DNA of 64,000 nucleotides from IMG/VR virus record IMGVR_UViG_3300043398_000057. One strand, given 5' to 3'. This document shows positions 7,572 to 57,042 of the stretch, piece after piece (within the stretch, counting starts at the first letter, position 1; each line of letters opens with the position of its first letter). The translations under genes were made by a program, and so were the position numbers. Source of the DNA: a virus. Under the pieces are notes generated by a model that saw nothing but the letters and a program-made list of their open reading frames with translations, did no database searches and had not been told where the DNA came from.

Positions 7572-7832
7572 TCAGGAATTCAGTGCGCTAGAGGTCTTAT
7601 CGAGGGTCGAACCCGGGCAGTTTGCGTGCATGTGCTTTAGCACATCCTTGAAACCATCGGGAACCTTCAGACCACCAGAACCGGCCACAATTTTGATAGG
7701 CGTCACAGTCTTGAAAATTTTTCCACCACACTTTTGGCAAGGTGTTTCACAAGGCTTTTCTCGGTTTGAAATTGATTGCAGATCATCAAAAACATTGTCA
7801 CATGATTCACATGCATAGGTGTACAGCGGCAT
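7572..7832 (-). CDS. FmdB-family zinc-ribbon protein
   Basis: MPLYTYACESC...PCQKCG. Confidence 0.85.
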   Translation of the reverse strand: MPLYTYACESCDNVFDDLQSISNREKPCETPCQKCGGKIFKTVTPIKIVAGSGGLKVPDGFKDVLKHMHANCPGSTLDKTSSALNS

Positions 7833-9394
7833 TAACTCTTTCTCCATTTTCCATTGATGATTGTAACCAATTGTCGCTTTCCGTTGTTGTGGATAATGCA
7901 GTTTGTATGTAACCAGCTTGATGGGCCAGTCAAATACTCCAAATCCATTCTACTTAGAGTGCCAACTTGGAAACAACCATTTTGAATACCGGGGGTATGC
8001 GAGTGACCGATAATCAGTTTATCACCAATCTTAGCCAGATTTTGAATACTGCCTCTCGCACCATTGGGACCACTGTGACCATGAAGACCACATTCGATAC
8101 CAGCGATATTCACAGAACCATTTGAGAATTCGATGTTGCCACAAATTCCCTTAGATTCCCAAAGAGTGTCACGGAAAATTTCAAATGCAGACTGCGACTT
8201 ACCAGTTTTCTCAATTTGCTGAAGTTTTGTGTACATCAGGTAATGGTAGATTTTCGCATTCACATAGTCATTTCGAATGTCAGCACTATTCAACCACTGC
8301 TCAACATGGTCATGGTGATTCGATGAAACGATAATGGATTTTGAGAATCTTGGCGTTGTCATTGCAAGATGATCCAAAGTCAGTCGCATTTCTCGTTCAA
8401 TCGAATTCATTCCAGAACTCATGTTCTTGGTGAACCGGGTGAAGAAATCATTGTTGTGCCACTTGGAAACACTGTAGGAATCCAGAACATCATGGCGAAC
8501 AATGACTTGAGGTTTCAGAACGTTCACCATAGATTTCTTATCGAAGAACGTTGCATCAGCGGCCTTTTCATCTGAGAACAAAACGTGTTCATCACCACAG
8601 ACCAATGCGGCAACACTACACTTCGAACCATTGCTTGTTTCATCCCATCGTTCATCAAGGTCATAGAACCCGCCTGTATGGTCAGCAAACAGTTGTCGAA
8701 GGTGGAAGGTACTACCTTCATCAAATTCGATTGCAACAGCCGCAAAACAATGATGGAAAGAGGCTTGATAACCAGCCTTTGATGCCGAATAGTTGTTCTT
8801 GGATGAAATACTACCAGTTGAATGTAGAATGATAGGTTCATTCCATGGATTCACCGGCAGAGACTTCATCTGAACAACCGAATGCCCGACGATTGTTGTA
8901 ATACCTTCACACAGCTTATCAATACCGGTCAGAGGGTGGGTTGCGGTCGCTTGAATGTTGCAATCGCCAATGATCTTGAACTTATCTTTCCATCGAACAG
9001 TTGTATCAAGAAAATACTTTGTGGCGCGGGTAGGCCAAGTTTTACCACCATCCTTGTGCATGGCGGAAGGGTTTTGATACTTGATAGGAATCACAAACAG
9101 TTTGAAGTTTTTGCGTTTGCAAAACTTCTCAAGGTTTGTCAAAAAGCTATCATTGATGGGCGTGTCATTGATGCAAGATGTTACAACAATACCACGATAA
9201 GAAGGATAAGCATACTCAAAGTCAACAGAGGGAAGAATCGGGTTAGATTTGTTTGCAACTTCTCGAACAAACTTCTTATCGCTTTTTGTGACATGGTTAC
9301 ATTCCTCACATTCATAGTGGTGCTAACTTTTCTTACCGGCGAACCGTGGGCCGATATATCGTGTTTTGTATGATCCACAACTTTCACACTTCAT
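7832..9394 (-). CDS. T5 A1-like metallophosphoesterase/nuclease with N-terminal Zn ribbon, one in-frame TAG
   Basis: GDEH, HDVLD, SNHH, HGHSGPNGARG, GHSHTP, GPSSW; N-terminal CESC..CEEC reached through TAG at 9323-9325. Confidence 0.65.
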
Positions 9395-9457
9395 CTAGTA
9401 TTTCCTTTACACACGATTAAGAACCAAAGGGGCCGAAGCCCCATTCATAGGTATCTA

Positions 9458-9715
9458 TCAGTCCTGATACAGACAAATCAATCGATAACGATTGTAGGTA
9501 ACACGACGACCCGAACGAACCTTGGTTACCGGTTCAGAAATAATGTTGAAACCATCAACAATGCAACGCTTTCGCAGACGACAAATTTCAGCGGTGGGCT
9601 TTTCAATCTTGAACTGTGCCCGAATCTGTGCAGAGGTAAGGGGTCGATCCTTCAGTGCCAGATACAGGCGTTCGATCTTTGCAGTCTTCTTAACGGTCTT
9701 GGTTGTCTTGGTCAT
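9458..9715 (-). CDS. small basic putative HTH protein
   Basis: LTSAQIRAQF..PTAEICRLR wHTH-like pattern. Confidence 0.5.
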   Translation of the reverse strand: MTKTTKTVKKTAKIERLYLALKDRPLTSAQIRAQFKIEKPTAEICRLRKRCIVDGFNIISEPVTKVRSGRRVTYNRYRLICLYQD

Positions 9716-10146
9716 GTAGATTTCCTTCTATAAGTTTTGTAATCGATGCCAGCTTCGATAAGCATCGAGATTGAAAAATCAGGGTTCCAACGTTCGGCAA
9801 ACTCTGGTTCGGGCTCATACCACACAACGCGAGAAATGCCACTCTGAATCAGCATCGATGTGCAGTTTGAACATGGTGGATGGGTGATATAGATTGTAGC
9901 ACCCTCAACCGATGTTCTTGCAGTGAGTCTAGCATTCAATTCAGCATGAATTACGGTCTTGTATTTGATTTCTCGGGTTTCAAGATACCTTTCATCATCT
10001 AACCCGGATGGAATACCGTTGAAACCCTATGAAATGATTCGGTTATCCTTGACAATGGTAGAACCAACTTGTGTTGAAGGGTCTTTCGACCACGACGACA
10101 CAAGTTGTGCCATCTCAAGATACCGTCTATCCCACTTTTCAGACAT
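9712..10146 (-). CDS. cd: dCMP deaminase, one in-frame TAG
   Basis: WSKDPSTQVG..IIS*GFNG..HAELNA..PPCSNC; TAG at 10027-10029. Confidence 0.9.
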
Positions 10147-10642
10147 TATCAAACGTGTGAACAAAGGGCTTCAGGTCGGGTGGAGTCCAGCCTTCAGGCT
10201 TGAGAATCTTACCGTCTTCACGCTTGATGCAAACACCGGTTGTCGGATCGATCTTAGCCAGATTGGAACGGGCAACCTCACGCCAAGCACCATCGAAGTC
10301 CCAATTCATGCGTTGACAATGATCAGTTGCAAACGTCATGAAATTAAAGAATTCCTTGACATTTTCATTTTCCGACATAACAATGTCGGTGTAGTCATTA
10401 CCCTCAGAAACGAACTTACCAATCCATACCCATGCGGTATCACACAGACCATCAAGGTGTTCGACATAGTTTTCAAAAGTTGGTGCGCCAGAAGCAGCAG
10501 CAGCAGTTTCTTGTTGTTCTTCGGTGATCAACTTTTCATACAGTTGAACTTGTTCAGGGTTGTTCACATCAATGGTCTGACCAGCGGCAGACATGAAAGT
10601 GACAACATCGGAAAACATATCAATCAGAGTCAGTTCACTCAT
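10139..10642 (-). CDS. MazG-like NTP pyrophosphohydrolase
   Basis: LITEE..E, DGLCD, EVARSNLAK, REDGKILKPEGW. Confidence 0.85.
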   Translation of the reverse strand: MSELTLIDMFSDVVTFMSAAGQTIDVNNPEQVQLYEKLITEEQQETAAAASGAPTFENYVEHLDGLCDTAWVWIGKFVSEGNDYTDIVMSENENVKEFFNFMTFATDHCQRMNWDFDGAWREVARSNLAKIDPTTGVCIKREDGKILKPEGWTPPDLKPFVHTFDNV

Positions 10643-10826: not shown

Positions 10827-11500
10827 TACTTCTTCCTTGCTGCAACCTTCTTAGCTGGAACCTTCTTTGATGCAACCTTCTTCGCGGGTGCCGCAGATTG
10901 AAGCAGTTCCATAGCTTCGAAGTATTCCTTACGCTTTTGCAAACGTTCAATGATTTGTTCAGCATCAAACCAGAATTCCATACCCATGATGACCTTTTCA
11001 ATTTCGTCTTCTGAGAGGAAACCTTCATAAACCTCATGCACGAACTTGTTGACCCACTTGTTCGAGAATGAGGCGTATGCGTTGATGTTGTTGTCGGTAC
11101 CACCATAGCCGTGCGATGCGGTATGGATCATCATTGTAGCACCGGGAAGAATGATTTGTTCGTCACATCCCAAAAGAATCATGGAACCGGCAGAGGATGC
11201 CGAACCAACATGAATGCCGCGAATGTGCGCTTTGGTGATAGCCATCGCATCAAGAATTGCGCGGCACGATTCCATCATACCACCGGGGGTGGCAAAGAAC
11301 ATGTCAACTTGATCACTCTCAGTCGCAGAGTAAAGAAAGTCAAGCAGTTTTGAATACTGCATAACATCCACAATGGGACCATAGAACCGTGCCTTGGCAA
11401 CGTAGTTCGTCAGTGGAATCTACTCAAGCTCAAATGGCACCCGCGTTTCATCTTCATCAAGATCGATTTCGGTCTTTGGAGTTGTCTTTTTGGTTGTCAT
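10826..11500 (-). CDS. ClpP-like protease, one in-frame TAG, Lys/Ala-rich C-terminal tail
   Basis: ATPGG, ASSAGS, MIH motifs; ATG 11500 with AAGGA RBS; TAG at 11420-11422. Confidence 0.8.
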
Positions 11501-11509
11501 CGGATTCCT

Positions 11510-11989
11510 TTACAGGTAGGGTTCCCAAGTATCGGGGAACGAACAATTTGCACCACAATCGCGGAACAGGGGAGCAATTTCTTCGGGAGTGTAACCGGCA
11601 AGACCGCAACCAATACCGGTAATGAAAAAATTCAGATCGAAGTTGTCTTTGGTAAACTTCACGAACTTGGCGACGTACTTGAAGATTTCTTCGATTTCCA
11701 TCGTTTGAATGTATTCATCCTTGGTGGGGATGGCGTAGGTCTTACCCGTGATACCATCCCATTCACCCAGCTTGGCACCAAGGTGATCCATGGCGTAACG
11801 TGCTGCGCCAGCACCATGAACACCACGCTTGTTGGAACCAAAAACAAAAAATTGGTCGGGTTCAGGTCCCGAACCATCAACATGGAACTTGCGGCGCTTG
11901 TTGCCAAAAATGGCATCGTAGTTTTCGCGATACACTTGGTTACCCCACTTGGTGATGATGTTATCGCCAGTAATGTCATTCTTGCTCAT
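11510..11989 (-). CDS. conserved phage protein (FVFGSN..HGAGAA family)
   Basis: FVFGSN.RGVHGAGAA, TYAIPT, IGCGLAG, IAPLF. Confidence 0.75.
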   Translation of the reverse strand: MSKNDITGDNIITKWGNQVYRENYDAIFGNKRRKFHVDGSGPEPDQFFVFGSNKRGVHGAGAARYAMDHLGAKLGEWDGITGKTYAIPTKDEYIQTMEIEEIFKYVAKFVKFTKDNFDLNFFITGIGCGLAGYTPEEIAPLFRDCGANCSFPDTWEPYL

Positions 11990-12188
11990 GATTAACCTTC
12001 AGTCAAAATTTGCTTGTGGAAACCGGTAACGCTTTCACCAAGTTGGTTGTAGCGATCACCGTTGTTGTCAACGTATTCTAGCACAGTGTTCCCGGTAATG
12101 GGGTCATTGTACGTCACAACCGAAGTGATTGTGACAAAAGTTTGATCAGATTTTTGATAAGTCTTGCCAAGTTCCATGTTATGACTCC

Positions 12189-12608
12189 TTATTCACATTG
12201 AATTGCTACACACGAGAACTTTTTCTCCGCTTGCACGGAGTGTAGCACACGGTCGCTGAATTTGTACCATGATCCCTTAACAAGCTGCACATAAGAGTTT
12301 CCAACATGCAGATAAGCATGATACCCCGGGTCGGAAAGAACACCAAACAGACTGTAGTTCGTGTCAATCTCGCCAACAGGGTCATCAGTATGAGGAACAA
12401 CGTTTTTCACATTCAGTGCAACAGCACTCGCATATGAATACACCAAACCTTCAGGAAAAAGATGATGAAGTGTTTCGGGAATGGAAACATTGAATTCGGC
12501 GTCTCCATTTTCTTTGACGAACTTCAAAAGTTCTTTGGGAACATAGTCGCAACTGATAAGTTCAATCTTTGGCATTTTCGGTTTCCGTGGTTTGATCGGT
12601 GTCCACAA
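12189..12608 (-). CDS. putative 2OG-Fe(II) oxygenase/cupin-like protein
   Basis: PHTD...F.D...HSV facial-triad-like pattern. Confidence 0.45.
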   Translation of the reverse strand: MWTPIKPRKPKMPKIELISCDYVPKELLKFVKENGDAEFNVSIPETLHHLFPEGLVYSYASAVALNVKNVVPHTDDPVGEIDTNYSLFGVLSDPGYHAYLHVGNSYVQLVKGSWYKFSDRVLHSVQAEKKFSCVAIQCE

Positions 12609-12793
12609 TCACTTTCACACTCTTTGTCTTGGTGTGCAGACAGTTGAGAAACTCCAAAGCATCAGCTTTGTATTCTTCACACACCTTAGGGTCTTCGAGT
12701 GCCGCACTGAGCCATGGTGCAATTTTATGGCATGACTCGATGAACATGGCGTCAAAAACCGCAAAGTATGCAATTTTGTGAGAACTCATAACA

Positions 12794-13363
12794 TCAACCC
12801 AAATTGTTGGATGTGAGGTAATCTTGCAACAGTTCTTCGGCGGTTCGATGACCCTCAAGGATGCCAGAAATTAGCGCAAATGCATGATCCAGAGACTTGC
12901 TCACATCATCAGGCGAGACACTGTATTCGGTGCCGACACGGTATGACCGCTTCAGTGCTTCGGGCGAAAACAGGAAAGATTGCGTCATGGTAACCCACTT
13001 CATGCGGGACCGGCTGTAAATTTCAAAATTCTTCGAAGAGTCGGAGAACCAAATCTTGAAAATTTCCGCATGAGGTCGGGGAGTGACAGAAACAGGTTCA
13101 GCCGTTTCATACGGAAGAACAGCCGAACGTGGGAACCAAAATGTTTCATGCAGTGTAGTGTTGTGAACATTGATCATTTTATGACGGATGGAATCACCAA
13201 GAGGAGTGTCGAAAATTACAAGTTCTTGATCAGCTTTTTGCGAATCAATGAAATTCTGAATGTCACTTTCATAATACCCAATACCATCCCAAATCGGACC
13301 ATCACCCTTTTCGATGATATCGATATCCAACAGAACACGTTGACCGGGGTAAAAATTAGTCAT
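12794..13363 (-). CDS. hypothetical protein
   Basis: 189-aa ORF in early-gene block. Confidence 0.6.
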   Translation of the reverse strand: MTNFYPGQRVLLDIDIIEKGDGPIWDGIGYYESDIQNFIDSQKADQELVIFDTPLGDSIRHKMINVHNTTLHETFWFPRSAVLPYETAEPVSVTPRPHAEIFKIWFSDSSKNFEIYSRSRMKWVTMTQSFLFSPEALKRSYRVGTEYSVSPDDVSKSLDHAFALISGILEGHRTAEELLQDYLTSNNLG

Positions 13364-13372
13364 ATAAACCTT

Positions 13373-13747
13373 TCAGGAAATTTTGGGGAGATATTCTTTT
13401 TCGATATGATCAGCGATTTCAGAGAAAGTATACCCTTCATCGTTCATATTTGCAACATCAAGTGCGTCATCATGACTCATACCCACATATGTTGTAATTT
13501 CTTCTGGTGGCATTTCGGTGTCTCTAATGTTCCCAAATCCAACAAAAGCAAATTGACCATCTTGATTGGGAGCATACCACTTGTTACCACCATCTTTCGA
13601 TGCTAGGTCACAAAGAACGCCAAGACAACAGAACCCTTCATCATTTTTCAAACAAGACTTAGTTTGTTTGTACTTTCCAGAACGAAGGGTTTTGATCCAC
13701 AGTTTCATAAACTCTTTCGGTGTGCGATAACGAATCTTCTTAGCCAT
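13373..13747 (-). CDS. conserved phage hypothetical protein
   Basis: W..LRSGKY.Q..L..G.CCLGV..ND.G..F..IAD pattern. Confidence 0.65.
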   Translation of the reverse strand: MAKKIRYRTPKEFMKLWIKTLRSGKYKQTKSCLKNDEGFCCLGVLCDLASKDGGNKWYAPNQDGQFAFVGFGNIRDTEMPPEEITTYVGMSHDDALDVANMNDEGYTFSEIADHIEKEYLPKIS

Positions 13748-14198
13748 TTTTCACCTCTTCGAAATTTTGTTCATCGACGTACTTGTAGCGACTATAGTGT
13801 GCAGTGTACATGTCTGAGCTATGTGGCTGAAAAGAACTTTGTGAACCGAGATGAAGGTTAAGTGACCAACCACCATCTTCACATTCTTCGCGTTCCTTTT
13901 CGGTCAAATACTCACGCGCAGCATCCTTGTCATACACCATCTCTCTAGGGATAAGCATTGATCGATGTTCATGAACAAGTTTCTTACCAACCTTACCAAG
14001 ACTGCGAACAGTTGCCTTACCGGTTGCTTCAGAACCGGCCAGCATGTTTGCAATGTCTTCGGGCTTGAGTTGAATCTCGATGAAACCAATTCGTGAGTTG
14101 GTGTCAACCACCGAGATAAAAAATTGACCATCCTTATCAGGATCACTGGAATTTCTGCGAGAGATACGAACTTCAACGTCAAATTTGTCTTGTGCCAT
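13740..14198 (-). CDS. hypothetical protein
   Basis: 152-aa ORF overlapping next gene. Confidence 0.6.
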   Translation of the reverse strand: MAQDKFDVEVRISRRNSSDPDKDGQFFISVVDTNSRIGFIEIQLKPEDIANMLAGSEATGKATVRSLGKVGKKLVHEHRSMLIPREMVYDKDAAREYLTEKEREECEDGGWSLNLHLGSQSSFQPHSSDMYTAHYSRYKYVDEQNFEEVKNG

Positions 14199-14256
14199 GA
14201 TTGTCTTTCGGTCAGTGGTCTATAACAATGAACTCATTATAGACCACTTTTGAAAC

Positions 14257-15213
14257 TTATGCAAGTGCCAGAAGTTGTTCCAGTGCAGAATTCTTCAGAG
14301 AGTTGCCAACACCGAACTCGGAATTGTTGAACTGGTGCGAAGCATCACGCTTGCCGGTACCATGGGTTGCCATTTCGGTCACAGCGTTCAGAACACCCCA
14401 TTGGGTACCATACGAAAAATCTGCGCCAGCACCATTCTTGTAAAAGTGCATCAGGGCATCAGTTTGACGCGAAACGGTCAGCTTGGTGGGGTCGATGTTC
14501 TTGGGGTTCACCAGTTTGTTAAAAAATTCAGCAGCGAAGTCATCAGTGACCTTCTTTTCTGCGAAACCCTTCAGATTGGTGATGAACGAATCCCACGACG
14601 AATCAATCAGACCCAAATCAACCTTGAATTGCTTGGGGTCGAATGCGCTTGCATGGGTCTTGCGAACACTGCTACCTTGACCACGCAGTGCAACTTGCAA
14701 AGTGTTGTTGCACACAGTGCGAGTCGATGTGAACTTTGCTTGAGTCGAAAGCGAACCATCAGCCGAAGTAACCAGCAGCAGTTGACCCTTGATTTCGTCA
14801 CCGGGAACAATGAAAGCATTCTTGCCGATTTCGGCAGTGGCCCAAAAACGCTTACCGCCGAACAGGGTGCCAGCAGCAGACAGCTTCATTTTGTTGGTTT
14901 CCGTGAATTCACGGAAAAATTCCAGAACTTCCTTGGGTTGCACAACGTGGTATTCTTCACTCACGATACCCAGCACATCGGTCGAGTCCGAACGGTACAG
15001 AACCTTGTTTTGGGTGTCGGTGATCAGACCACCGGCAGTTTGGAAACGAACATTCGATTCCATGATTTCCCAATCCATACCAGCAGCAGTTTGCCACTGT
15101 TCGATGGTTTGGTTTTCGGGCAGGTATTGACCCAAACCGTGCCAAACTTCCTTGCGGTCACCGAGTGCGGCGAATTCGATGAAACCATTCTTGCGTGCGG
15201 TCAGTTGGTGCAT
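14257..15213 (-). CDS. DUF932-family protein
   Basis: WHGLG, Y.VVQP.E, GG.R.W, S.DGS, R.VC.NTL, WG..NAVTE. Confidence 0.85.
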   Translation of the reverse strand: MHQLTARKNGFIEFAALGDRKEVWHGLGQYLPENQTIEQWQTAAGMDWEIMESNVRFQTAGGLITDTQNKVLYRSDSTDVLGIVSEEYHVVQPKEVLEFFREFTETNKMKLSAAGTLFGGKRFWATAEIGKNAFIVPGDEIKGQLLLVTSADGSLSTQAKFTSTRTVCNNTLQVALRGQGSSVRKTHASAFDPKQFKVDLGLIDSSWDSFITNLKGFAEKKVTDDFAAEFFNKLVNPKNIDPTKLTVSRQTDALMHFYKNGAGADFSYGTQWGVLNAVTEMATHGTGKRDASHQFNNSEFGVGNSLKNSALEQLLALA

Positions 15214-15245
15214 TTCAAAACTCCATTCATGTTTAAGGTGAAGAC

Positions 15246-15274
15246 AGTGTAAGAGATTTTTCAAACACTGTCAA
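15246..15274 (-). promoter_or_regulatory. sigma70-type early promoter, class B (copies also at 40789-40817 and 41865-41893)
   Basis: TTGACA-17 nt-TACACT; three related copies with shared downstream leader. Confidence 0.8.
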
Positions 15275-15499
15275 GAACTTTTTAAGACTTTTCCGAAAGT
15301 TGTTCAGCAACAACATCCATCGCGTGACTTTCATCAACAACCTTGATGGCCCAAAAATGACCATCGATCAGAACATTGTTTGTTTCGCGATCAAAGAAAG
15401 CGACGATCTTGTTGTTCTCGTCACGAATGATACCGCTGCGAAACATGGTGTGCTTGGCGTTCATGATGTTCACTTGAAAGTTGTGTTGCGATGGAATGA

Positions 15500-15528
15500 A
15501 TTATGGGGCCGAAGCCCCATCTTGTCAA
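15500..15528 (-). promoter_or_regulatory. sigma70-type early promoter, class A (copies at 19628-19656, 20871-20899, 24203-24231, 27962-27990, 28915-28943, 37104-37132, 42624-42652)
   Basis: TTGACA-17 nt-CATAAT/TAGAAT, most followed by the leader TCATTCCATCGCAACAC. Confidence 0.85.
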
Positions 15529-15546
15529 CACCTATTTGAAAACTTT

Positions 15547-16695
15547 TTACTTTGTTGCGGAAGTGTCACGGATACCAAGTTCCTTCCACTTGCCCTTGAA
15601 AAAGTTCTTGTAGTCGTTCTCACGTTCAACATACAGGTTCATGACAAGACCGAAGTAAAGAGGTGTCACTTCGGTCTTTGCCTTAGACGCGAAATCTTTA
15701 CGTTCAAGCGTCTTATTTTCACGGTAGAAGTTTTCAACTTCCTTGAACATGGCATTGAAAGTTCCCGAAACAAACTTGTCCATCTCTTCAATCAGCTTCA
15801 GAGATTCTTCATCTTTTGCGAAGTATCCGCGAAGATCATCGGCACCACCATCAACAACAGCCTGAAACAAGCGTCGAGGATTGGTCACAGAATCTTTCAC
15901 ATGATGCAAAGACATGTACTTGTCGGTCTTGTGCTTGACACGCTTTCCACCCTCAAACACATAAATGAACCCTTCAATACTGTCTGTCATAGATGCAACA
16001 GACTTGACGAATTTTTCAATGTTTTCAGGCTTGAATGCAGGTCGAGCAAACTTCTTCAACTCTTCCGGAATGTCAACATACAGTTCATCCATGTACAAAG
16101 GCATGGTGTCAATAATGTTGAGAACCACCAATTGACTGTTATCGTATGACAGAACCACACGATTATCGGGCGAAATCCACTCAAGGTTGACCGTGTAACC
16201 GGACAATGTTGCAACTTCCAGTTGTTCACGGAACTTGTTGTTTTCGGGTAGGTTGATCCACTTGGTTGCTTCAATGACCTGAACCGAGTCCAGACTTTCC
16301 TTAGACTTGAAAGCCATTTCACCGTAATAGTTGATGTATGTCGAAATCAGAGAACCATCATACTTCGGTTCAACAGCGACAATCTTCGAAAGATCAAGAC
16401 CGATGGTTTCAGGGTTTTCATTCAGGTTGAAAAACTTTGGCATCGGCAGGCACACCAAAATGGGAACCAAATTTTCGGAAAATGTTTCAAACATGATGCC
16501 CCGGGCAAACTTTGCATAAGGCTTTTGAAAGTCGCTGTACGATGCAAGGTTGTAGTTGAAAATTCGATACTTCGACGAACCTTCAGTCACATCCTTGTAA
16601 TAGAACGAATCGTTCGTTTCACACAGTTGCATCAGAGTTTCGTAGCACTCTTTTTCATCAAACGCTTGGCGAATTTGTTCAGTCTGGTTTGTCAT
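15547..16695 (-). CDS. rnlA: RNA ligase 1 (T4 RnlA-like)
   Basis: RGIMF, KFFNLNE, KYDGSLI, EGF, K.K..Y..LH. Confidence 0.9.
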   Translation of the reverse strand: MTNQTEQIRQAFDEKECYETLMQLCETNDSFYYKDVTEGSSKYRIFNYNLASYSDFQKPYAKFARGIMFETFSENLVPILVCLPMPKFFNLNENPETIGLDLSKIVAVEPKYDGSLISTYINYYGEMAFKSKESLDSVQVIEATKWINLPENNKFREQLEVATLSGYTVNLEWISPDNRVVLSYDNSQLVVLNIIDTMPLYMDELYVDIPEELKKFARPAFKPENIEKFVKSVASMTDSIEGFIYVFEGGKRVKHKTDKYMSLHHVKDSVTNPRRLFQAVVDGGADDLRGYFAKDEESLKLIEEMDKFVSGTFNAMFKEVENFYRENKTLERKDFASKAKTEVTPLYFGLVMNLYVERENDYKNFFKGKWKELGIRDTSATK

Positions 16696-16877
16696 GATTT
16701 AGTCGATTCTTAAAGGTTATGAAAGAGATGAAGAGGAAGATGGGGATTGTCAAAAACCCCACAACCGCACTTGATGCGATGTATTGCAGTGTAGTCCAAT
16801 ACGGGTCTTCTGTCAATACAGCAATCAGCATTCCGCCAACAATTCCAACCATCGGCCAAAGATAGATGAAACTCATG

Positions 16878-17294
16878 TCAGTAATCGGGAGTGGCAATCT
16901 CATACTCTTTGTTCTTGATGCAATCCATCAATTCTTTCAAAGAGTAAAACGACGCACTTTTTCCAGTTGGCGTTTTGCCATAGATGTACATGGTGTCACT
17001 GCGCCTGATGAACCAAAAACCACTTTTGAAACCAATTGGTTCACCGTGGTCAGAATCAAATGAATCAACAACAAAGGTAACACCATCAAGTTTTACCTTA
17101 TCGCCAGAACGAAGTTCTTTCAATTCTTCAATTTTTGCGGTCTTCAGGTTGAGAACGCCGGTCGCAATGTATGTTGATGTGTAATCTTCTGGTAAGTCAC
17201 CAGTAGCGAAACAGAGGGCATCAATCAATGGTTCAACACAATCTTTGTTGTTCGTTGTGATTGATGCACTCGGACCAGAGATGAAGTATTGCAT
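16878..17294 (-). CDS. hypothetical protein
   Basis: 138-aa ORF. Confidence 0.55.
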   Translation of the reverse strand: MQYFISGPSASITTNNKDCVEPLIDALCFATGDLPEDYTSTYIATGVLNLKTAKIEELKELRSGDKVKLDGVTFVVDSFDSDHGEPIGFKSGFWFIRRSDTMYIYGKTPTGKSASFYSLKELMDCIKNKEYEIATPDY

Positions 17295-17297
17295 GTG

Positions 17298-17564
17298 TCA
17301 CTCATTTGTAAGAGGGTTTTCCAAACCGGCCGCATTTCTCGCTTGTCGCGTTTCAATGATGACCGGAACGCCCGATTGTACATGCTTTTCATGAATCGCG
17401 CCAAGAATCTTTTGGCAGTCTTCATAAGACAGTTGTGAAAGATCGGGTGAACCATCAGGATCATGAATTTCTGTAGCGATACCGATTTGTGCCAGTGTGC
17501 TTGCAATCACGTTTGCAATCGAGGTCTTACCCTCACCGGTACTTCCAACAATGATGATACGCAT
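17298..17564 (-). CDS. small P-loop protein
   Basis: IIIVGSTGEGKTS Walker A in an 88-aa ORF. Confidence 0.55.
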   Translation of the reverse strand: MRIIIVGSTGEGKTSIANVIASTLAQIGIATEIHDPDGSPDLSQLSYEDCQKILGAIHEKHVQSGVPVIIETRQARNAAGLENPLTNE

Positions 17565-18178
17565 TACACACGCTCCATCTTCTTCAGCTTCGACGAAATC
17601 TTGGCGAACTTTTCCACGATCTTCTTCTGCTTTTCAACAATGTTGCTGATGTACAGATATTCCTTGTACTGTTCAGAAGTTGTCGGATCGTTCTTGTCGC
17701 ACAGTTCCCACAGTTCAGCCTTGACCTTCTTGAAAATTTGAATGTCGGCGTAGGTGTAACGCAGAATTTCACGAACTTCCTGCCGCAGAGTTTGGATTTC
17801 CGATTGGGTCAGTTGTTCTTGTTGTGGTTCTGGAACACCACCCGAAAACTTGTCCATGACCATTTGACCGGTTTCCATCATGAACATGATGATTTGCAAA
17901 ATGCCACCATCAACCATTTCAGCAAGAACATCACCAGATGCTTCAACTTCAACACCATCAACAACGTAAACGCTATCGTCCAGTGCGACAAATTGATTAT
18001 CTTCGGTAACCATATCGGCAACGCTTGTCATAATGACAGAACCGGCAAACTTGCCACTGACACCACGGAACACAATGTCAAAATTTTCACCGGGAGTGAT
18101 GGACGAAAATTGATCGCCCTTGATCAGAAGTTCGAAGTTGTTCACGAACGGCAGATGGATTTTGGTCAGATTTTGCAT
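17564..18178 (-). CDS. hypothetical protein with C-terminal coiled coil
   Basis: 204-aa ORF with AGGA RBS. Confidence 0.6.
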   Translation of the reverse strand: MQNLTKIHLPFVNNFELLIKGDQFSSITPGENFDIVFRGVSGKFAGSVIMTSVADMVTEDNQFVALDDSVYVVDGVEVEASGDVLAEMVDGGILQIIMFMMETGQMVMDKFSGGVPEPQQEQLTQSEIQTLRQEVREILRYTYADIQIFKKVKAELWELCDKNDPTTSEQYKEYLYISNIVEKQKKIVEKFAKISSKLKKMERV

Positions 18179-18211
18179 GATATTTTCCTTCAGTTGTAGA
18201 GATGTTTCAGT

Positions 18212-18532
18212 TTACCACACCTTGACTTGGTTCAGATTGACCCAGGTGTAAAATTGTTTGCGGGTTCCGGTCGCTGCTCCACCCACATCTACACCATTTT
18301 CATTCTTGACGTAATAGCGAATGTGACGCCATGGGTAAATTTTAGGGTCGCGGAGTTGATCAGGTTTTGCGTGAATTTCAACGTCATTCTTGTCAATTTC
18401 ATTGAAAAAGATTTCGCTGTTGTAGCCACACTCTTCAACCTTGAAACGAACACCTTGAAAGACAACGGTATCACCATCCTTCAAAGTCAGAATCGTTTCA
18501 GGGGTTTCTTCAATGTTAATGTCTTGAGTCAT
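18212..18532 (-). CDS. hypothetical protein, tandem paralog 1
   Basis: Shares INIEE.P, YPWRHIRYY and VKVW with 18537-18857. Confidence 0.75.
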   Translation of the reverse strand: MTQDINIEETPETILTLKDGDTVVFQGVRFKVEECGYNSEIFFNEIDKNDVEIHAKPDQLRDPKIYPWRHIRYYVKNENGVDVGGAATGTRKQFYTWVNLNQVKVW

Positions 18533-18536
18533 GATT

Positions 18537-18857
18537 TCACCAAACCTTTACTTCGCCGTTAGTGATCCAATTATGAAATTCTTCCAGTGATGTACATGCT
18601 GTTCCGCCGATTTCCTTGTCAACATTCAATTTGTAATATCGAATATGACGCCAAGGGTAATCATTTGTTTGCCAAAGTTTTTCTCCAACCGGTGCCACTA
18701 CAGGCAGACCCGCCGAAGATACTTCATCGAAGAAAACTTTTGTTTTATCCATATTATTCCTCAGAACAAACTTCACGTTCTGAAAAATTACGAAATCTCC
18801 AACTCTGAGATGAAGAATCTCACTCGGATTTTCTTCGATGTTGATGAATTCAATCAT
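18537..18857 (-). CDS. hypothetical protein, tandem paralog 2
   Basis: Same length (106 aa) and motifs as 18212-18532. Confidence 0.75.
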   Translation of the reverse strand: MIEFINIEENPSEILHLRVGDFVIFQNVKFVLRNNMDKTKVFFDEVSSAGLPVVAPVGEKLWQTNDYPWRHIRYYKLNVDKEIGGTACTSLEEFHNWITNGEVKVW

Positions 18858-19199
18858 GGGGTTCCTTACCAGTTGTGAATGATGCCAGCGATGATGAAAA
18901 GATTTGTCACCACCGAAAGAAAAACTATTGTCAGACGTATCAAAGCAATTATATCAGCTTCCCGGTCTGTACTTCCATCTTTTTGACCTAGTGATTTTGC
19001 GATAAGACGCCACATAGGTCAATCAGGGTTTACCCTATAAAAACTTTCTTCGATTTCACGTTCAACCTCACGATTGAAACGCTTGTTCATGGTTCGCGAT
19101 TCGCGCTTATCGGAATGCTTTTCCGAACGCTTGGTTCGCAGAACTTCATTGTTCTTCTTCTTTTCGTATTGAGTTTTTGCCCAAGACATGTTTCTTTCC

Positions 19200-19490
19200 T
19201 TACTTTTTCGTAAACAGTTGTTTGACTGAGTGACCGGTAGGAAACATTTCAGCGGTTTCCATATCGACCCGCAATTGAGTCGGGTCACAGTCTTGCAGAA
19301 CATGAAGAATCCGTGTACCCGACTTGTTTTCATACAACCAAGCAAACGGTTCAACTTCATCTTCACGACGATCCTTCAATTCTTGGAGAAAAGAAAGAAC
19401 GTCACGGTAATAGTTCGCTGAACGAGAGTCTTCAGCATTCACAATTCGTTCTTGTGTGCGGAAGATGAAAATTTCGAGGTCTGTCATCAT
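19200..19490 (-). CDS. hypothetical protein
   Basis: 96-aa ORF. Confidence 0.5.
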   Translation of the reverse strand: MMTDLEIFIFRTQERIVNAEDSRSANYYRDVLSFLQELKDRREDEVEPFAWLYENKSGTRILHVLQDCDPTQLRVDMETAEMFPTGHSVKQLFTKK

Positions 19491-19652
19491 TCAAACCATG
19501 ATTGCAGGTTATAACAAAAATGTGCGCGAATGGCCGGGCAGTTCATCAAATGAGCAGTGACGATTTCGTTCACAATTTCAGAAGAATCAACCATTTTAGG
19601 CTTTCAATGTGTGTTGCGATGGAATGAATTCTATACAGACCTCGAACCATTG

Positions 19653-20399: not shown

Positions 20400-20420
20400 G
20401 ATGCACTCTTTCAAAAATGA

Positions 20421-20831
20421 TTAAACAAGTTCGTTAGGAATTTCGAACAACAGGTCAGACTTCCCCGCAACTTTCGACTTCCAAGAAACGTATGCCTTCA
20501 TTGCGGCATTCAGAGGCGTAGGGCCAAACGCTGTGAAGCTACCGTCAGAATTATAAATCCATGCCATGCACTTTTCTGCCGGATTGTTGTATGTCAACTC
20601 AGTCTTTTGTGTAAGACCCTCAATTTCACCGATGAACGGACCACCAACAGCCCAATCACTAGAAGGGCGGAAAGACGACAACCAACGACATTCGCCAGTT
20701 TGCGAATTTTCCAATTCGAACTTGCCGTTGGAGTGAACATCATAACTGTCCCATCCAGAACACACGGCAACAGCGTAGTCCAGTTGTTCACCAAACAGGT
20801 CTTCGATTTTGACAATGGTTGTTGCGGTCAT
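20421..20831 (-). CDS. NinX/DUF2591-like phage protein
   Basis: LDYAVA, F.PS.DW..GGP.I, GPTPL.AAM. Confidence 0.7.
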   Translation of the reverse strand: MTATTIVKIEDLFGEQLDYAVAVCSGWDSYDVHSNGKFELENSQTGECRWLSSFRPSSDWAVGGPFIGEIEGLTQKTELTYNNPAEKCMAWIYNSDGSFTAFGPTPLNAAMKAYVSWKSKVAGKSDLLFEIPNELV

Positions 20832-20903
20832 GATGTTCTTTCTGTTGAAAGTTGTGTTGCGATGGAATGAATTATGGCCCCGAAGGGCCATGTTGTCAAG
20901 CGA

Positions 20904-21563: not shown

Positions 21564-21567
21564 TATT

Positions 21568-21990: not shown

Positions 21991-22000
21991 ACAAATTCCT

Positions 22001-22432: not shown

Positions 22433-22438
22433 GTTCCT

Positions 22439-22810: not shown

Positions 22811-22819
22811 GATCTTTCC

Positions 22820-42693: not shown

Positions 42694-45600
42694 TCAATTG
42701 TTTTTCTTGTACTGCCTACCGAAGACGTAGTTCGCGTATTCCTTGTAGCCTTGACCCTTCTTGATCATCAAATCTTCGCCATGAGTCATGATGTTGAACG
42801 ATGTTGAGTCATTCTCAATTCTGACAACAGGGCCGCGACTCGTTCTATACACTTCAACATCAGGGTTCTTAAACATGCCGTCTTCATATTCACGATAGTC
42901 AATAACACCATCATTTGTTGGAATCATACCATCAGTGAAAATGAATTCGATCACATGTTTAGGAGTTTGATACTTCATGGTGGACTCGTCAATTTGAACC
43001 GATTCGGTAAGCGAGTCGATGCTTGTTTGCAACCATTCACGCAGTTTCTTAGTTGACGTTGTACGAACCTTGAAAACCTTCACAATCCGAATCATCATCT
43101 GTGGCGCGTTCACCGCGTATTCGGGCGAAACCAAACGACTCGGATAACCATTTGGCAAACCAGTGTTACCACCATACCACCAAGTCTTACCAATTTCACT
43201 ATTGGAAGTTGGCTCATAAACTTCAAGTTGGAACAAATAACCAATTTCGTCATATGTTCGCGCGTAACCATGATCCGAAATGTACTGTTGTGACTTGTCG
43301 GCAGTTTGGGTGTAGTAAATGCCGTTGACTTTCGCTGTACCTTCCTGTGCCTTAACTTTTACATCATTGACCTTATAGTTAGCAAGATAATAACCCTTTT
43401 TGTAGGCGTCATCAAGGCTTGGGAAAGGATCATTTATAGCACTGATTTCAACCGCTGGCTTAGTGTCATCAAATCGTCCGAATCTGAGATTCTTACATTC
43501 CAACATTTTACCAGCAACCTTAATCGGCCCGCCACTCTTCAAAAGTTTGAAACCGTATCGAGTGATGAAAGTTGCAGCGCGAGAACCGCAACCATGGAAA
43601 ACATCAGTTCGCAATTTGTACTGAACATTGTTGTCGGCCCAAATTTTCAACATTGCGGCAATCATCTTTTCATCACTGATTTTCGATTCAAAAATGTCTT
43701 CAACAATCATCGCAAAGTCACCATGCTTACCATTTGAACGATCAGCAAGATATTTTGTGGCTTCGATCCTATCCTTCAGCGATGGGTTTGCTGGAGTAAT
43801 CATCTGAGGTTTAACGTAAGGCGTGAAATTATCAAAATCGATGGTATCGGGATCAACACCTTCCATGATCGAATCTGTGTCAACTTCATTAACCCACATC
43901 AACTTATGAATAAGACCGGCTTCCAGTGGTTCATTAGGAACAATCGGGCTACCTTCATTGTAAGACTTTGCAACACGTTCACCAGCGGCAAAGTAAATGA
44001 CCTTCTTCTTAGCTTCTGGTGGAAGCGACTTCATCGCTTCAGTAAACCCAGGTTCATCATTTCGCGCAGCAAAGAATCTGTAAGCACTTTCGATAACTTT
44101 CTCTTTCTTCAGGTTTCGAGACTTGTCATATTGACGGAACGCCAATTCGATAGTTTTTTGATCACTGATAAGACTTGCAAATTCCGTGATATCAACAGCT
44201 TGTGAACCAGTCGGGGAGAAAATCTTTTGACCGACCGACAATGAGTTCATCGCGATATTGTAGAGTTCGGGGAAAAGTTGAGCCAACTTTGTCGCAACAT
44301 CAGAGTCCATGATAGACAGTGATGGAACGTTTTTGATGTTTGGTTCGGTACCGTAATTCAATTGGGCATCTTTCCAAAGATTCACAATTCGTTCGGCATC
44401 GGCCATACTACCGGCACTATTGAGCAAAATACCTGAGAATGACTGATTGATTTGATCAGCGTAGTTTTCAAGAATGAATTCTCTAAACTTCTTTGAAATT
44501 TTGCTGGCGACACGGAACAAAGAACCGATGAAAATTTCATGAACGTTCGTTCTATAACCATCGAGAAGTTTGTCAAACAGTGCAGGATGAACATCAACGT
44601 AATGATCCAATGAGGCGTTCAACAAATCGAACGAATCGTGCACTTCGGCATGGCGAATCATGGAAGTACAGGTTTCAGTTTCCAAGATTTTATGCGCAAC
44701 GTTTGTGTGAATGTTGACAACCGAATCATGGAAGTACAGCGCGAAGTTGCCATAGTTTTTGTTGTAGAACGCCGAAATACACCAGTCAACGAATTTTTCG
44801 TTAGTTTTACGGTATTCAATGATTTGAGCGATTGCTTGGAAATGAGTATCAGAAAATTTGTCGGCAGGGTGAATATCAGCAATCAGTCTAACAAGATTGG
44901 CAAGGTTTGGCGGAATGCATGAGGTGTCATAGTACCTCGAATAACTATCAAACTGTTGCAAAAATGTTTTATACTTTGATGCGTCATCAAGATTGAACGA
45001 ATTTGCATCCTTTTCATATTTTGCAAAAATCTCGTTCAGTGAACCACTTTTGTATTTTTCCAGTTTGAAAGAAATTGGAACAAGTTTGTAGTGACCCAAG
45101 TATTCCGTGCTATCAAAATTCTTCAGTGCTTCCATGAGTGCATCATATTCAGCATCATCAGAAACCACATACTGATCATATGTGTCCATGGCAAGTGCCA
45201 AAATAACATCGGGGGTTTTCTCGAATGTAAATTTGTCATCGCCTATCACACCAACGGGGAAGAACTGCTTACAAGCTCTGAACGCGCACACGCTACCACC
45301 ACTAAGATGGGGTTTGAATTCCAACTCGCCGCTGCGCATAGAATAGTAGCTGTAATTCGAAAAATCGTCCTTACCCGTGTTCGTCAGCGTAGAACCCGGG
45401 AAAATCTCAGAGAAGTTGACCAACATCCAACGTTGGGCGGAATTGATTGTACCAAAGTCAACACTTGATGGAGCGTTGAAAATATACTGAGCCAGCATCA
45501 ACCAAAAGAATTCATTACCGGTTGCCTTTTTGTAGAAACCAGAATTCACCAAACCCTTCATGAAAGAATCAAACCGTGCGCCGGAATCGGATTCATCCAC

Positions 45601-47031
45601 AACAAATCTGACGGTGTTTTTCGGATATTGTTCAAAAGCATGGAATGCATAATCATATGCACTCTTCGAACTGTAATAGTATGACGAACGATAGAAATAC
45701 TTGTTGACCCCCTTTGAGTTTCGTTCTGTTGAAATGTTGTACTCATATTTTGTTGCCTTGAAATATGCATCAAAAAACTTCTTGGCATTATCCTTATCGG
45801 CGTTTGCGATGGCATCATTGATTTTGTAAGAGTATTTGTACATGTCATCATTAGCGTTGATGTATTCCAAAAACTCTGTAACATCAACACGCTTGGCAAC
45901 CTTATCAAATTCACCATTGATCAAGTTGACAAACATGTTCTTCATTTGCAATGGCGTAAACGATGATGGCGCGGCCAAAGTCTTACTACCCTTTGGTGCA
46001 CGACCGCGTTTTGCCGGTGCTGTAGCAACCGGTGCCGGTGAGGGAGTTGCAACCGGTGCCACAACCGGTGCCACAACAGGTGCAACAGGTGCCACAACCG
46101 GTGCAGCAACAGGCGCGGGAGTAGGTGCAGGCGTTGCAACGCGAGACACAAACGGTTGCGAGAATTGCGAAACGGGCGTAACCAATGGTTGAACAATTGG
46201 ACGAACCACGGGCTGAACAACGGGTGCTGTAGGCACAACAGTGGCAACAGGTTGAACAATTGGACGGGGCGGGGTCACAACCGGTGCTGGAACTGGTGTG
46301 GGTGCCACAACAGGTGCCGGTGCTGGAACTGGTGTGGGTGCCACAACAGGTGCCGGTGCTGGCGTGGGCGCAGGGGTTGCAACCGGCGCAGGCGCGGGCG
46401 GAGTCACACCAGCTTTAGGTGTACCCTTGGGACCAAGTTCACCAACAATCTTAGGGTCATACGAATCGAAACCGTTTGAGCCAACATAGTGAGTTGCAAG
46501 CCGCTTAAATTCAGCAGCAACCTTTTGACGAGCCTTAGAGTAGCCTTGAATGTCTTGCCAAACAAGAACACCAACTTGTTGAATGCTGTATGTGCCGGTG
46601 CGCCACTTGGTGAACTGATTCTTCAGAATCGTCGATGGTTTGAAATCCGGATCACGCAACATTTCCTTTGCAAGACCGCGCAAAATAGTTTCATCAATTT
46701 GACTTGACGACAAGTTGCCTTGCTTGATCTTGGCGAACAGAAGCGTGAACTTGTCGGCCAGAACCCGACTCATAACACCACCTTCAACAGCCAGCTTCAC
46801 CGACAGTGAAATGTCATTGTTTGCGTCACCAATGTTGTCAAACCGAATCGACTTGTCATTGATGAAATAGTTCTTAACAGCGTGACCACCTTGAGTATCA
46901 CCAATGGCATACAGACCAAGAATGCCAAAAATGTTGATAATCAGTGCATCAGACTATTGTTGCTTGTCGGCAACCAATGCATCCTTTTCTTGGGCATTGG
47001 TGTAAAAGGTGTTTTCATACAAACGTTTCAT
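42694..47031 (-). CDS. large Alt-like ADP-ribosyltransferase (about 1445 aa), one in-frame TAG
   Basis: PARP-like FHG..I.RYGF..GKML..GIY...DKS.QY..PEY near the C-terminus; ATG 47031 with GAGG RBS; TAG 46954-46956. Confidence 0.7.
46010..46410 (-). repeat. Pro/Ala/Val/Thr low-complexity coding repeat
   Basis: PAPAPVVAPTPV-type repeats inside the Alt-like gene. Confidence 0.85.
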
Positions 47032-55512: not shown

Positions 55513-55519
55513 CTAAATA
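55513..55519 (+). promoter_or_regulatory. late promoter-like CTAAATA
   Basis: About 25 nt upstream of the first plus-strand structural ORF. Confidence 0.6.
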
Positions 55520-55543
55520 GAAGTCATCTAATGATCTATTGCT

Positions 55544-56275
55544 ATGGAAAACAAACTCTCAGAACTTTCAAAACTGCTTGAAAAAGGTGTTCAAGCAAAA
55601 AAGCAACGTTTGCAAAACAGTGAGGACGCACTTACTGAAATGTTTCGCATTGTTGCTGAAGGAAAGAAAGAGAAGACTCCAAAAGAAAAACTCAAAGAGG
55701 TTTCGACCCAACTTGACGACATTGTTGAACGTGCCGTAGAACTTGAAGAGAAGTATTCCAGAATCGAACAGTTTGAGAAGAAAACCAATAGTGATCTTTC
55801 AAACATCAAAGACCAACAAGAAAAGAAGTTTCTCAATCTTTACAACGGTCTAAAACAAGAAATTGAAGGACTGCGAAAGGCAGTTCAGGAAACCACAAAT
55901 CAAATCTCATTTGGAGGTGGTGGCGGCGGTGCCGCAACCCTTAGAGATTTGTACGATATTGACTTTTCGACACTTTCACCGGATTACGTTCTAAGCTATG
56001 ATGGAATGTCGGGTGCATTTGTTTTCAGAGAAGTTACTGCAACTGGTGGAACATCGGGAAATCAGATTCGTAAATATGAGACTGATTTGAGTGGAACCAA
56101 TGTAACTATTCCTGTCGAATCTCATAGTTTTCAAACTTCTGTTGTCGAAGCAACTTTTGTTCGATCCAATAGAAAGGTTGATGTGTACTGGTTTTATGAC
56201 CCGGTAACCAAAAACTTCATCATAGAATCTAACGTTGACCTCACAGGGGTCAAACTCACAATCAACGGATATTGA
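55544..56275 (+). CDS. putative virion structural protein
   Basis: Coiled coil, GGGGGG hinge, L.DL.D.D..VL.YD fibre-like motif. Confidence 0.65.
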   Translation: MENKLSELSKLLEKGVQAKKQRLQNSEDALTEMFRIVAEGKKEKTPKEKLKEVSTQLDDIVERAVELEEKYSRIEQFEKKTNSDLSNIKDQQEKKFLNLYNGLKQEIEGLRKAVQETTNQISFGGGGGGAATLRDLYDIDFSTLSPDYVLSYDGMSGAFVFREVTATGGTSGNQIRKYETDLSGTNVTIPVESHSFQTSVVEATFVRSNRKVDVYWFYDPVTKNFIIESNVDLTGVKLTINGY

Positions 56276-56286
56276 GGTAATTCAAA

Positions 56287-57042
56287 ATGGCAGAACGTTC
56301 AACTTATGTAGACTTGAACTTCGAGAAAGTTAGTCAAATCGTTAATGCGAGACTGCATAACGTAACAACAACTCAGAGAAATTCTTAGGCTGCAACGCTT
56401 GGTGCAACCAATGAAGGTTTGATTGTTTACGATACCGATGAAGACCAAATTTACGTTTGGAACGGTACCACATTCATTCCGACTAAGGTACAAGGTGCCA
56501 TGACCTATAAGGGTACCGTCACAAGCCTTACAACCGCGCCAGCGGGCTTTGATGTTGGTAGCACATACGTCTTCACCGGTACACCCGGCACTTTGACTTG
56601 GGCGGGTCAATCGTTCTCACCATCGGCCAACATTGAAGTTGGTGACATTCTGATTTATCGTGGCTCAAACACATGGGACATTGTTGAGGGTAACGACATT
56701 GCCGCAACCGAAACCGTTGCCGGTAACGTTACGCTTGCTACCCAAGGTGATGTGAACAATGGTACCGGTAACGGTGTTGTGACCGCTACAACCCTATCAG
56801 CATTTGTCAATGCCCGCAAGCTGGCTAAGACATATTTCGCAACGGTTGATCTTGCTGCACTGACGCCATTCACGGTTTCTCATAATATGGGATTGTCAAA
56901 TCGTGATGCATTTGTCGTTAGAACCGCAACGTCAAACGGCTCAGAAGTTTCTTTTGATATTGACTCTGTTGACACAAACAGTTTTACGGTAACTTCTGCG
57001 GTCGCGTTGACCGGTGTGAAAATCTTCGCAACCGGGTTCTAA
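56287..57042 (+). CDS. tail fibre/adaptor protein, one in-frame TAG
   Basis: ATG 56287 with GAGG RBS; TTTQRNS*..GLIVYDTD..VWNG; TAG 56386-56388. Confidence 0.75.

Follow-up and report, generated by a model that had tools for sequence, protein, structure and literature searches.

In-frame TAG codons gather near gene starts in a phage that encodes a leucine-type tRNA(CUA)

TAG-interrupted genes and a suppressor tRNA

We analysed a 64,000-nucleotide (nt) stretch of the virus record IMGVR_UViG_3300043398_000057 from IMG/VR, hereafter called the window, in which in-frame TAG codons interrupt conserved phage genes and a transfer RNA (tRNA) gene carries the anticodon CUA. The window covers 44% of a genome of 144,862 bp, and all TAG counts given here refer to the window alone. 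It is 43% G+C, and its genes lie mostly on the minus strand up to ~55 kb (Table 1). T4-like and T5-like modules are present (gp5, gp48, a tail-tube-like protein, a gp55-like late sigma factor, UvsW and a T5 A1-like protein), together with NrdA, NrdB, ThyX, dCMP deaminase, DNA and RNA ligases and a ClpP-like protease. A preliminary description of this DNA had noted that the first TAG lies within the first 50 codons in 14 of 19 genes, and had proposed that such codons form a translational gate.

Genes were modelled independently of the list behind that description, by reading TAG as sense, scoring codon usage (trained on long standard-code open reading frames) together with a simple ribosome-binding-site term, and selecting genes greedily; the HNH endonuclease gene was entered manually. 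The model comprises 94 genes and 19,391 codons, with 25 in-frame TAGs spread over 19 genes, a density of 1.3 per 1000 codons. Its 92 complete genes end in TGA (51) or TAA (41); no gene requires a TAG terminator, and TAG could serve as a stop at most once, at codon 199 of the 204-codon endolysin gene. The window therefore shows the three features by which alternative-code phages are recognized: a tRNA(CUA) of its own, TAG not used as a terminator, and in-frame TAGs in conserved genes, among them gp5, NrdA, NrdB, UvsW, ThyX, ClpP and the endolysin, that run without interruption in homologues. As a separate trait of composition, NTA codons are strongly avoided over the whole window (ATA 11, TTA 18, CTA 49 and GTA 87 of 19,391 codons), and both strands are poor in the trinucleotides TAA, TTA, TAG and CTA but rich in TGA and TCA.

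The tRNA(CUA) gene is one of six tRNA genes clustered at 38.3-39.7 kb. It is identical to the tRNA-Leu(CAA) of the same phage at 69 of 85 bases, and the two share an identical 16-nt trailer, indicating that tRNA(CUA) is a duplicate of tRNA-Leu(CAA) with an altered anticodon. Its best matches in the phage database were tRNA-Leu genes without exception, and a megablast against that database returned tRNA matches only. Leucine also occupies several of the TAG columns in homologues: 16 of 19 sequences at gp5 codon 16, all 7 relatives at NrdB codon 151, and L, L and L/I in PDB homologues at endolysin codons 48, 84 and 125. At NrdA codon 34, the 120 homologues carry M (76), L (40), I (3) or Q (1). 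Other columns hold other residues (M in T4 at UvsW-229, F in homologues at ThyX-40, T or V in homologues at NrdB-34 and E in T4 at gp55-69), and the ClpP N-terminus is too divergent in distant homologues for column 27 to be aligned. Taken together, the tRNA type and the homologue residues at TAG columns support the view that TAG is read as a rare leucine codon by the phage tRNA-Leu(CUA). Genetic code 15, in which TAG is glutamine, does not fit columns of Leu, Met or Ile and a type II, Leu-like tRNA. Programmed read-through of the Q-beta A1 type does not fit either: the TAGs fall in conserved N-terminal-side domains, with pre-TAG products of 10-50 amino acids (aa). Scans of IMG/VR with the suppressor sequence, a general Leu-type CUA pattern, the 1445-aa protein of Table 1 and gp5 found nothing.

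Several further elements were seen around the tRNA cluster. Extended -10-like promoters (TGGTATAAT) precede tRNA-Leu(CAA) and the gene at 39791-40039, which suggests that the cluster is transcribed by the host polymerase. Directly upstream of the HNH gene lies a tRNA-like element, not called by ARAGORN, in which a long acceptor-like stem and a perfect T-arm (GGTTCGATACC) are present but a clear D-arm is not; its match to the tRNA-Sec model was weak (23 bits, E=0.11), and its fold z-score was -2.3.

Position of TAG codons within genes and gene blocks

The independent gene model returned the same 19 genes and the same count of 14 with a first TAG within 50 codons. First-TAG codons of 11, 16, 16, 22, 24, 26, 27, 34, 34, 34, 37 and 40 were reproduced, and the remaining two cases, dCMP deaminase (29 or 40) and the endolysin (48 or 50), vary by start choice alone and stay at or below codon 50. 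Of the 25 TAGs, 14 lie in the first 50 codons, an interval that contains 23.9% of the codons overall (p=5.6e-4) and 24.8% of those for Leu (p=8e-4; TTG alone, 20.3%), so the premise that Leu codons are spread evenly and TAG is not holds in this window. When TAGs were shuffled within genes with the TAG count per gene kept, at least 14 genes with an early first TAG arose with p=5e-6, and the observed mean relative TAG position of 0.276 with p=2e-5. The four very long genes singled out in the preliminary description (1445, 823, 572 and 520 aa) do carry one TAG each, at codons 26, 16, 34 and 24, with a joint chance of 1.6e-5. On a finer scale, no TAG was found among the 846 codons at positions 2-10, 13 were found among the 2,820 at positions 11-40 (p=1.2e-5), and none among the 3,776 beyond codon 300, where 4.9 were expected (chance of none, 0.008). 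No motif was seen around the TAGs; the next base is G in 10 cases, A in 7, C in 6 and T in 2 (background T, 0.20), which is not significant.

The pattern also differs between classes of genes. A repeated host-type promoter, in six near-exact copies plus variants, lies in intergenic regions at the head of small-gene arrays and marks two early-promoter blocks. TAG-bearing genes make up 1 of 46 in these blocks and 18 of 48 elsewhere (p=1.4e-5), the exception being the GH19 endolysin. The first 50 codons take 13 of the 21 TAGs in the 48 non-early genes (baseline 0.177, p=8e-6), and TAG density in these genes is 9.0 per 1000 codons at codons 11-40 compared with 0.67 elsewhere, so that in this interval TAG outnumbers TTA, CTA and CTC. 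TTG falls there from 22.2 to 15.3 per 1000, the sum of TTG and TAG being approximately constant, and the share TAG/(TAG+TTG) reaches 13/35 (37%) against 8/272 outside the interval (p=6e-9). At codons 2-10 the counts are 10 TTG and 0 TAG, which has a chance of 0.01-0.02 (0.01 at the TAG share of codons 11-40). Long and short non-early genes did not differ significantly in early TAGs (6/16 versus 7/32, p=0.31).

The promoter cassette has an unusual layout: TTGACA, a spacer with a GC-rich hairpin (ggcccttcggggcc), ATAAT and then a conserved leader (TCATTCCATCGCAACA). A hairpin inside a promoter spacer is uncommon and may have a regulatory role. Scans of the window for the T4 late promoter (TATAAATA) and for a strict sigma-70 pattern gave no matches.

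Among the explanations that would make the crowding of TAGs incidental, one is that the bias is confined to this 64-kb part of the genome, with its nucleotide-metabolism and baseplate genes, and would fade genome-wide, for example in the head/tail structural block. Within the window the p values range from 1e-5 to 6e-9, a strong signal that was not picked from many tests, and we regard a purely local effect as unlikely.

A general translational ramp or a 5' messenger RNA (mRNA) structure effect, by which bacterial and phage genes concentrate rare or AT-rich codons in their first 30-50 positions and TAG merely follows, finds some footing in the codon counts, since a mild excess within codon 50 is seen for several rare codons (AGG 0.40, GTA 0.37, CTC 0.34, TTA 0.33 and CTA 0.33, against 0.24). 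The value for TAG, 0.56, is however the highest of all codons and exceeds that of the pooled rare codons (0.266; p=0.0018), and ATA, the rarest sense codon, lacks 5' enrichment (1/11, 0.09), so that the enrichment is not a shared one. Moreover, a change from TTG to TAG keeps G+C, and avoidance of mRNA structure therefore cannot drive TAG placement; nor does a ramp explain the absence of TAG from the early genes. Such an effect is in our judgement a poor candidate.

Termination at the TAG followed by re-initiation at a downstream start, as in early lacI amber mutants, would leave shortened proteins that still work. A GTG, ATG or TTG does occur within 4-6 codons past the TAG in gp5, NrdB, ThyX and the HNH gene, but the next start is 30-69 codons away in the NrdA, A1-like, 1445-aa and dCMP deaminase genes. 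The residues that would be skipped are conserved, including an oligonucleotide/oligosaccharide-binding (OB)-fold motif in gp5 and the N-terminal domain of NrdA, and a dedicated suppressor tRNA is present, which together make restart very improbable.

The start calls themselves are well supported. For 12 of the 14 early TAGs, homology spans the codon (gp5, NrdA, NrdB, ClpP, ThyX, dCMP deaminase, HNH, gp48, the tail-tube-like protein, the fibre protein, the DUF5664-like protein and the endolysin). The remaining two are supported by the lack of an alternative start: the codons that follow the TAG include no ATG, GTG or TTG over a stretch of 60 in the A1-like gene and of 51 in the 1445-aa gene. 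All pre-TAG stretches score as coding (-0.05 to 0.34; in-frame coding mean 0.18, out-of-frame -0.51), and codons 27-77 of the 1445-aa gene do so with a log-odds (LOD) score of 0.36. Homology, the start-codon scan and the coding scores thus place the starts upstream of the TAGs, a point on which the preliminary description had made its proposal depend. When the A1-like and 1445-aa genes, whose starts rest on inference, were left out, 12 of 23 TAGs were still early (p=0.003).

Any upstream in-frame stop that is read through would look early, and three more TAGs, left uncounted, lie 4-8 codons upstream of chosen starts. We assessed how errors of the pipeline are distributed. Six standard-code relatives read with TAG as sense yielded 7 false in-frame TAGs, 0 of them early, and when TAA or TGA was treated as a sense codon in the window, 40 and 61 false in-frame stops resulted, 1 of them early in each case. 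Wrongly read-through stops fall late, indicating that a pipeline artefact runs opposite to the 5' signal. With this result, the homologies and the coding scores, and with no gene in need of a TAG stop, the idea that these TAGs are ordinary stops or lie upstream of true starts as false N-terminal extensions is largely refuted and scarcely credible. The same pipeline applied to a 50-kb stretch of Lak-A1, a fully TAG-reassigned phage, found 159 TAGs with 8.2% in the first 50 codons against a baseline of 8.0%, and a uniform spread with a mean relative position of 0.46; 5' crowding is thus no general trait of recoded phages or of the gene caller. These analyses confirm that chance, gene-calling errors and ordinary rare-codon bias fail to account for the placement of TAG.

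Two of the genes in Table 1 had been labelled differently in the preliminary description. The 1445-aa protein, called Alt-like there, has no Pfam or PDB sequence match and matches only phrog_18612, in its C-terminal part, leaving an ADP-ribosyltransferase assignment unsupported; the protein called gp3 matches tail-tube families instead. In the gp5-like spike, a GH19 domain and a C-terminal Peptidase_M15 domain replace the T4 lysozyme domain. The UvsW TAG directly precedes an ATG and the DEAH box, so that standard-code gene callers cut the helicase into halves of 228 and 276 aa, both of which are in public protein sets.

Table 1. Coordinates of TAG-bearing genes, tRNA genes and promoter features in the window
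Feature	Position	Strand	Remarks
DUF5664-like / dNTP pyrophosphohydrolase-like protein, 112 aa	4699..5037	-	TAG codon 22 (4972-4974); PHROG matches residues 7-96
T5 A1-like protein, 520 aa	7832..9394	-	single TAG codon 24 (9323-9325); phrog_1745 residues 30-518; no start codons at codons 2-84
dCMP deaminase, 133 aa (144 from alternative ATG)	9712..10113	-	TAG 10027-10029; Pfam and PHROG domain across TAG
ClpP-like protease, 224 aa	10826..11500	-	TAG codon 27 (11420-11422); tblastn homologues from residue 3
Early-promoter block, small genes	11500..29000	-	promoter and leader motif; TAG-free except endolysin
Promoter cassette copies	15484-15504, 19612-19632, 20855-20875, 27946-27966, 28899-28919, 42608-42628	-	variants at 23.9-24.2 kb and 37.06-37.14 kb
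GH19 endolysin, 204 aa	20904..21518	-	TAGs codons 48, 84, 125, 199; sole TAG-bearing early-block gene
gp5-like baseplate spike, 823 aa	31193..33664	-	single TAG codon 16 (33617-33619); homologues with same Met1
gp48-like tail-tube cap, 286 aa	35388..36248	-	TAGs codons 11, 51; phrog_230 residues 2-282
ThyX, 312 aa	37145..38083	-	TAG codon 40 (37964-37966); phrog_85 residues 5-310; Pfam Thy1
tRNA(CUA), Leu-type, long variable arm, TAG decoder	38421..38505	-	85 nt; ARAGORN anticodon CTA; Rfam tRNA model 48 bits
HNH endonuclease inside tRNA cluster, 170 aa	38992..39504	-	TAG codon 37; Pfam HNH_3 residues 31-73
tRNA-like element	39508-39600	-	
tRNA-Leu(CAA), paralogue from which suppressor derives	39617..39701	-	
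Extended -10-like promoters	39505-39790, 40040-40087	-	
Second early-promoter block	39700..42650	-	arrays 39.7-42.6 kb; TAG-free
1445-aa protein, phrog_18612, function unknown	42694..47031	-	single TAG codon 26 (46954-46956); next start codon 78
NrdA, 572 aa	47568..49286	-	single TAG codon 34 (49185-49187); 120 homologues align through column
NrdB, 338 aa	49293..50309	-	TAGs codons 34, 151; Pfam domain residues 22-294
UvsW helicase, 505 aa	51752..53269	-	TAG codon 229 (52583-52585); aligns with T4 UvsW residues 22-501
Tail-tube-like protein, 144 aa	53718..54152	-	TAG codon 16; phrog_45 residues 2-135
gp55-like late sigma factor, 183 aa	54405..54956	-	TAG codon 69; phrog_234 residues 3-174; aligns with T4 gp55
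Fibre or minor tail protein, 251 aa	56287..57042	+	TAG codon 34; phrog_4120 residues 26-71, weak; coding score
215-aa protein	57046..57693	+	TAG codon 72
121-aa protein	61604..61969	+	TAG codon 88
Fibre-like protein, cut by window end (relatives 734-745 aa)	62579..64000	+	TAGs codons 71, 278

Probable conditional decoding and known systems

The explanation that we consider probable is that decoding by tRNA-Leu(CUA) is leaky or conditional, so that selection keeps TAG where failure is cheap. From the tRNA, the leucines at TAG columns, the positional and gene-class patterns and the controls, all of them observed directly, we infer a competition with release factor 1 (RF1) and a timing of the tRNA: the host would still have RF1, and tRNA(CUA) would accumulate after infection. 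Each TAG would then be a point at which part of the ribosomes stop, with a waste that rises with the number of codons already translated and with long fragments that are perhaps harmful. For a 1445-codon gene at 50% read-through, a TAG at codon 30 costs ~2% extra synthesis and one at codon 700 about half. TAG would accordingly persist at about codons 11-40 of non-early genes, where failure would free a short peptide of roughly exit-tunnel length with little synthesis lost, and would be purged from later positions and from early genes, which would be translated before tRNA(CUA) is plentiful. Its loss from the first 10 codons might reflect a waiting ribosome that blocks the start site or a very short peptide that terminates badly, although this is a guess. 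In effect, the output of about one third of the non-early genes would be tied to the supply of suppressor, a built-in throttle or delay acting on NrdAB, ThyX, dCMP deaminase, ClpP, the virion parts gp5 and gp48, the late sigma factor and, fourfold, the endolysin.

Several observations weigh against this explanation. The TAGs number only 25, from less than half of the genome. A pure cost rule predicts a TAG maximum at codons 2-10, exactly where none is found, and is not matched by the mid-gene TAG of UvsW (codon 229) or by the four spread TAGs of the endolysin. No sequence motif accompanies the TAGs.

The preliminary description had offered two versions of its gate, in which selection either places an early stop as a switch dependent on suppressor level or removes late TAGs because incomplete read-through there is costly. 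Its observational part stands, as Leu codons are even, TAGs are uneven and starts lie upstream; as for the two versions, both fit, because they rest on the same position-dependent cost, and neither predicts the gap at codons 2-10 or UvsW-229. The near-absence of TAG from early arrays, the four TAGs of the endolysin, the TAG in the late sigma factor and the 37% TAG share at codons 11-40 are compatible with a switch, but a passive cost filter can yield every one of these features too.

Slow or failing codons near a start limit downstream ribosome traffic, as in a codon ramp, and nonsense codons have their strongest polar effect on downstream RNA when they lie early, giving a polarity gradient. 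Unlike the present case, both describe how sense codons generally behave or what mutants show, and in neither is a stop codon put to natural use with a tRNA to match.

Recoded phages with suppressor tRNAs are known among crAss-like, Lak and other phages (10.1101/2021.08.26.457843; Peters et al., PMC9523058; phAss-1, PMC10607447), and the Borges preprint found recoded stops enriched in late and lysis genes and proposed a control of timing (10.1101/2021.08.26.457843). The phage described here resembles them in its phage-encoded tRNA(CUA), in the in-frame TAGs of conserved genes and in favouring TAG in late and lysis genes and avoiding it in early ones, the pattern for which a role in lytic timing was proposed. 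It differs in that TAG is Gln in those phages, whereas the tRNA and the columns indicate Leu here. It also differs from Lak-A1 in TAG density, which is 10.8 per 1000 codons in that phage, and in the pile-up at codons 11-40 in place of an even spread. We found no analysis of TAG position within genes in the Borges preprint (by term search), in the phAss-1 paper or in full-text literature searches.

The nearest natural parallel is the tRNA-Leu(UAA) encoded by bldA of Streptomyces and its codon TTA, likewise a rare Leu codon with one dedicated Leu tRNA. Growth-phase genes lack TTA and late-function genes contain it, as TAG is divided here between early blocks and other genes. A passage in PMC4255298, citing Chater and Chandra 2008, states that streptomycete TTA codons are biased toward gene starts, and the same bias is seen for TAG in this window. 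Control by bldA acts partly via tRNA modification (PMC10732093). Unlike TAG, TTA is a sense codon whose failure means stalling, whereas failure at TAG means termination by a release factor; and bldA is a cellular developmental switch, whereas the present case concerns a phage infection programme. An engineered counterpart is the supP 'leak dampener', in which a tRNA-Leu(CAA) whose anticodon was changed from CAA to CUA serves as a Leu amber suppressor and gates genes through silent Leu-to-TAG substitutions (PMC7969014). In RF1-positive E. coli, 1-3 TAGs were optimal with supP and 40-69% of the signal was kept, and one construct carried its TAGs directly after the start codon (PMC7969014). The phage shares with supP both the origin of the suppressor from tRNA-Leu(CAA) and Leu-to-TAG gating; supP differs in being synthetic, with the tRNA under an inducible promoter, and no natural example was claimed for it.

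In the papers searched, studies of recoded phages deal with the choice of genes that carry reassigned stops and not with the site of these stops along the gene. A sharp 5' rule at a low TAG count, set against the flat distribution in Lak, suggests an intermediate state of code change in which the codon is partly still a stop and its placement reveals the cost. Position bias could then serve as a sequence-only gauge of how complete a reassignment is and as a way to find conditional codes in metagenomes.

TAG columns in close relatives and a possible timer

Proteins of close relatives were retrieved by exact-sequence cluster look-ups, giving a small, protein-level comparison. For the fibre-like protein at the window end, ~90%-identical JGI relatives carry Leu at columns 71 and 278, indicating that TAG and Leu codons swap among relatives. 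Three full-length ENA/Logan relatives carry Q exactly at TAG columns of the window, namely ClpP-27 (96% identity), NrdA-34 (90%) and sigma-69 (89%). As Q is missing from the other 119 NrdA homologues, and as the lone difference at 96% identity would otherwise be a coincidence, these residues are best explained as TAGs translated by a gene caller with TAG=Gln (table 15), in which case the TAG has been kept; the alternative is a real CAG. If Q is a mistranslated TAG, as is probable for the Logan and ENA proteins P0294, P0305 and P0321, protein databases hold Q-for-L versions of the proteins of this phage group. Near-identical ENA and JGI contigs yield the same truncated pieces as the window, and scans with NrdA returned only relatives of at most 58% identity, which have no TAG at the column. 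The comparison points towards retention of early TAGs and loss of late ones, although the sample is too small to give more than a direction.

These data bear on whether early TAGs have been selected as a timer, such that middle and late genes await tRNA-Leu(CUA), with the late sigma factor and the endolysin, the latter fourfold, co-controlled. The TAGs seemingly kept at ClpP-27, NrdA-34 and sigma-69 (if Q is TAG), beside the plain Leu at fibre columns 71 and 278 of other relatives, are hints in this direction. Near-neutral early TAGs that drifted to a high share would look the same as a selected throttle, and we put the timer forward tentatively, as a possibility somewhat short of an even chance. 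Such a timer would make a stop codon the basis of a natural feed-forward loop, by analogy a phage counterpart of bldA and TTA. If the placement is selected, toxic or costly genes are delayed here by a simple natural device, at which synthetic biologists arrived independently.

The NrdA comparison revealed one further difference among these relatives. The fragment of the ENA relative P0295 begins with an intein-like segment (…VYDITVPETESFFANDT) that is absent from NrdA of the window, suggesting that the presence of an NrdA intein varies among close relatives.

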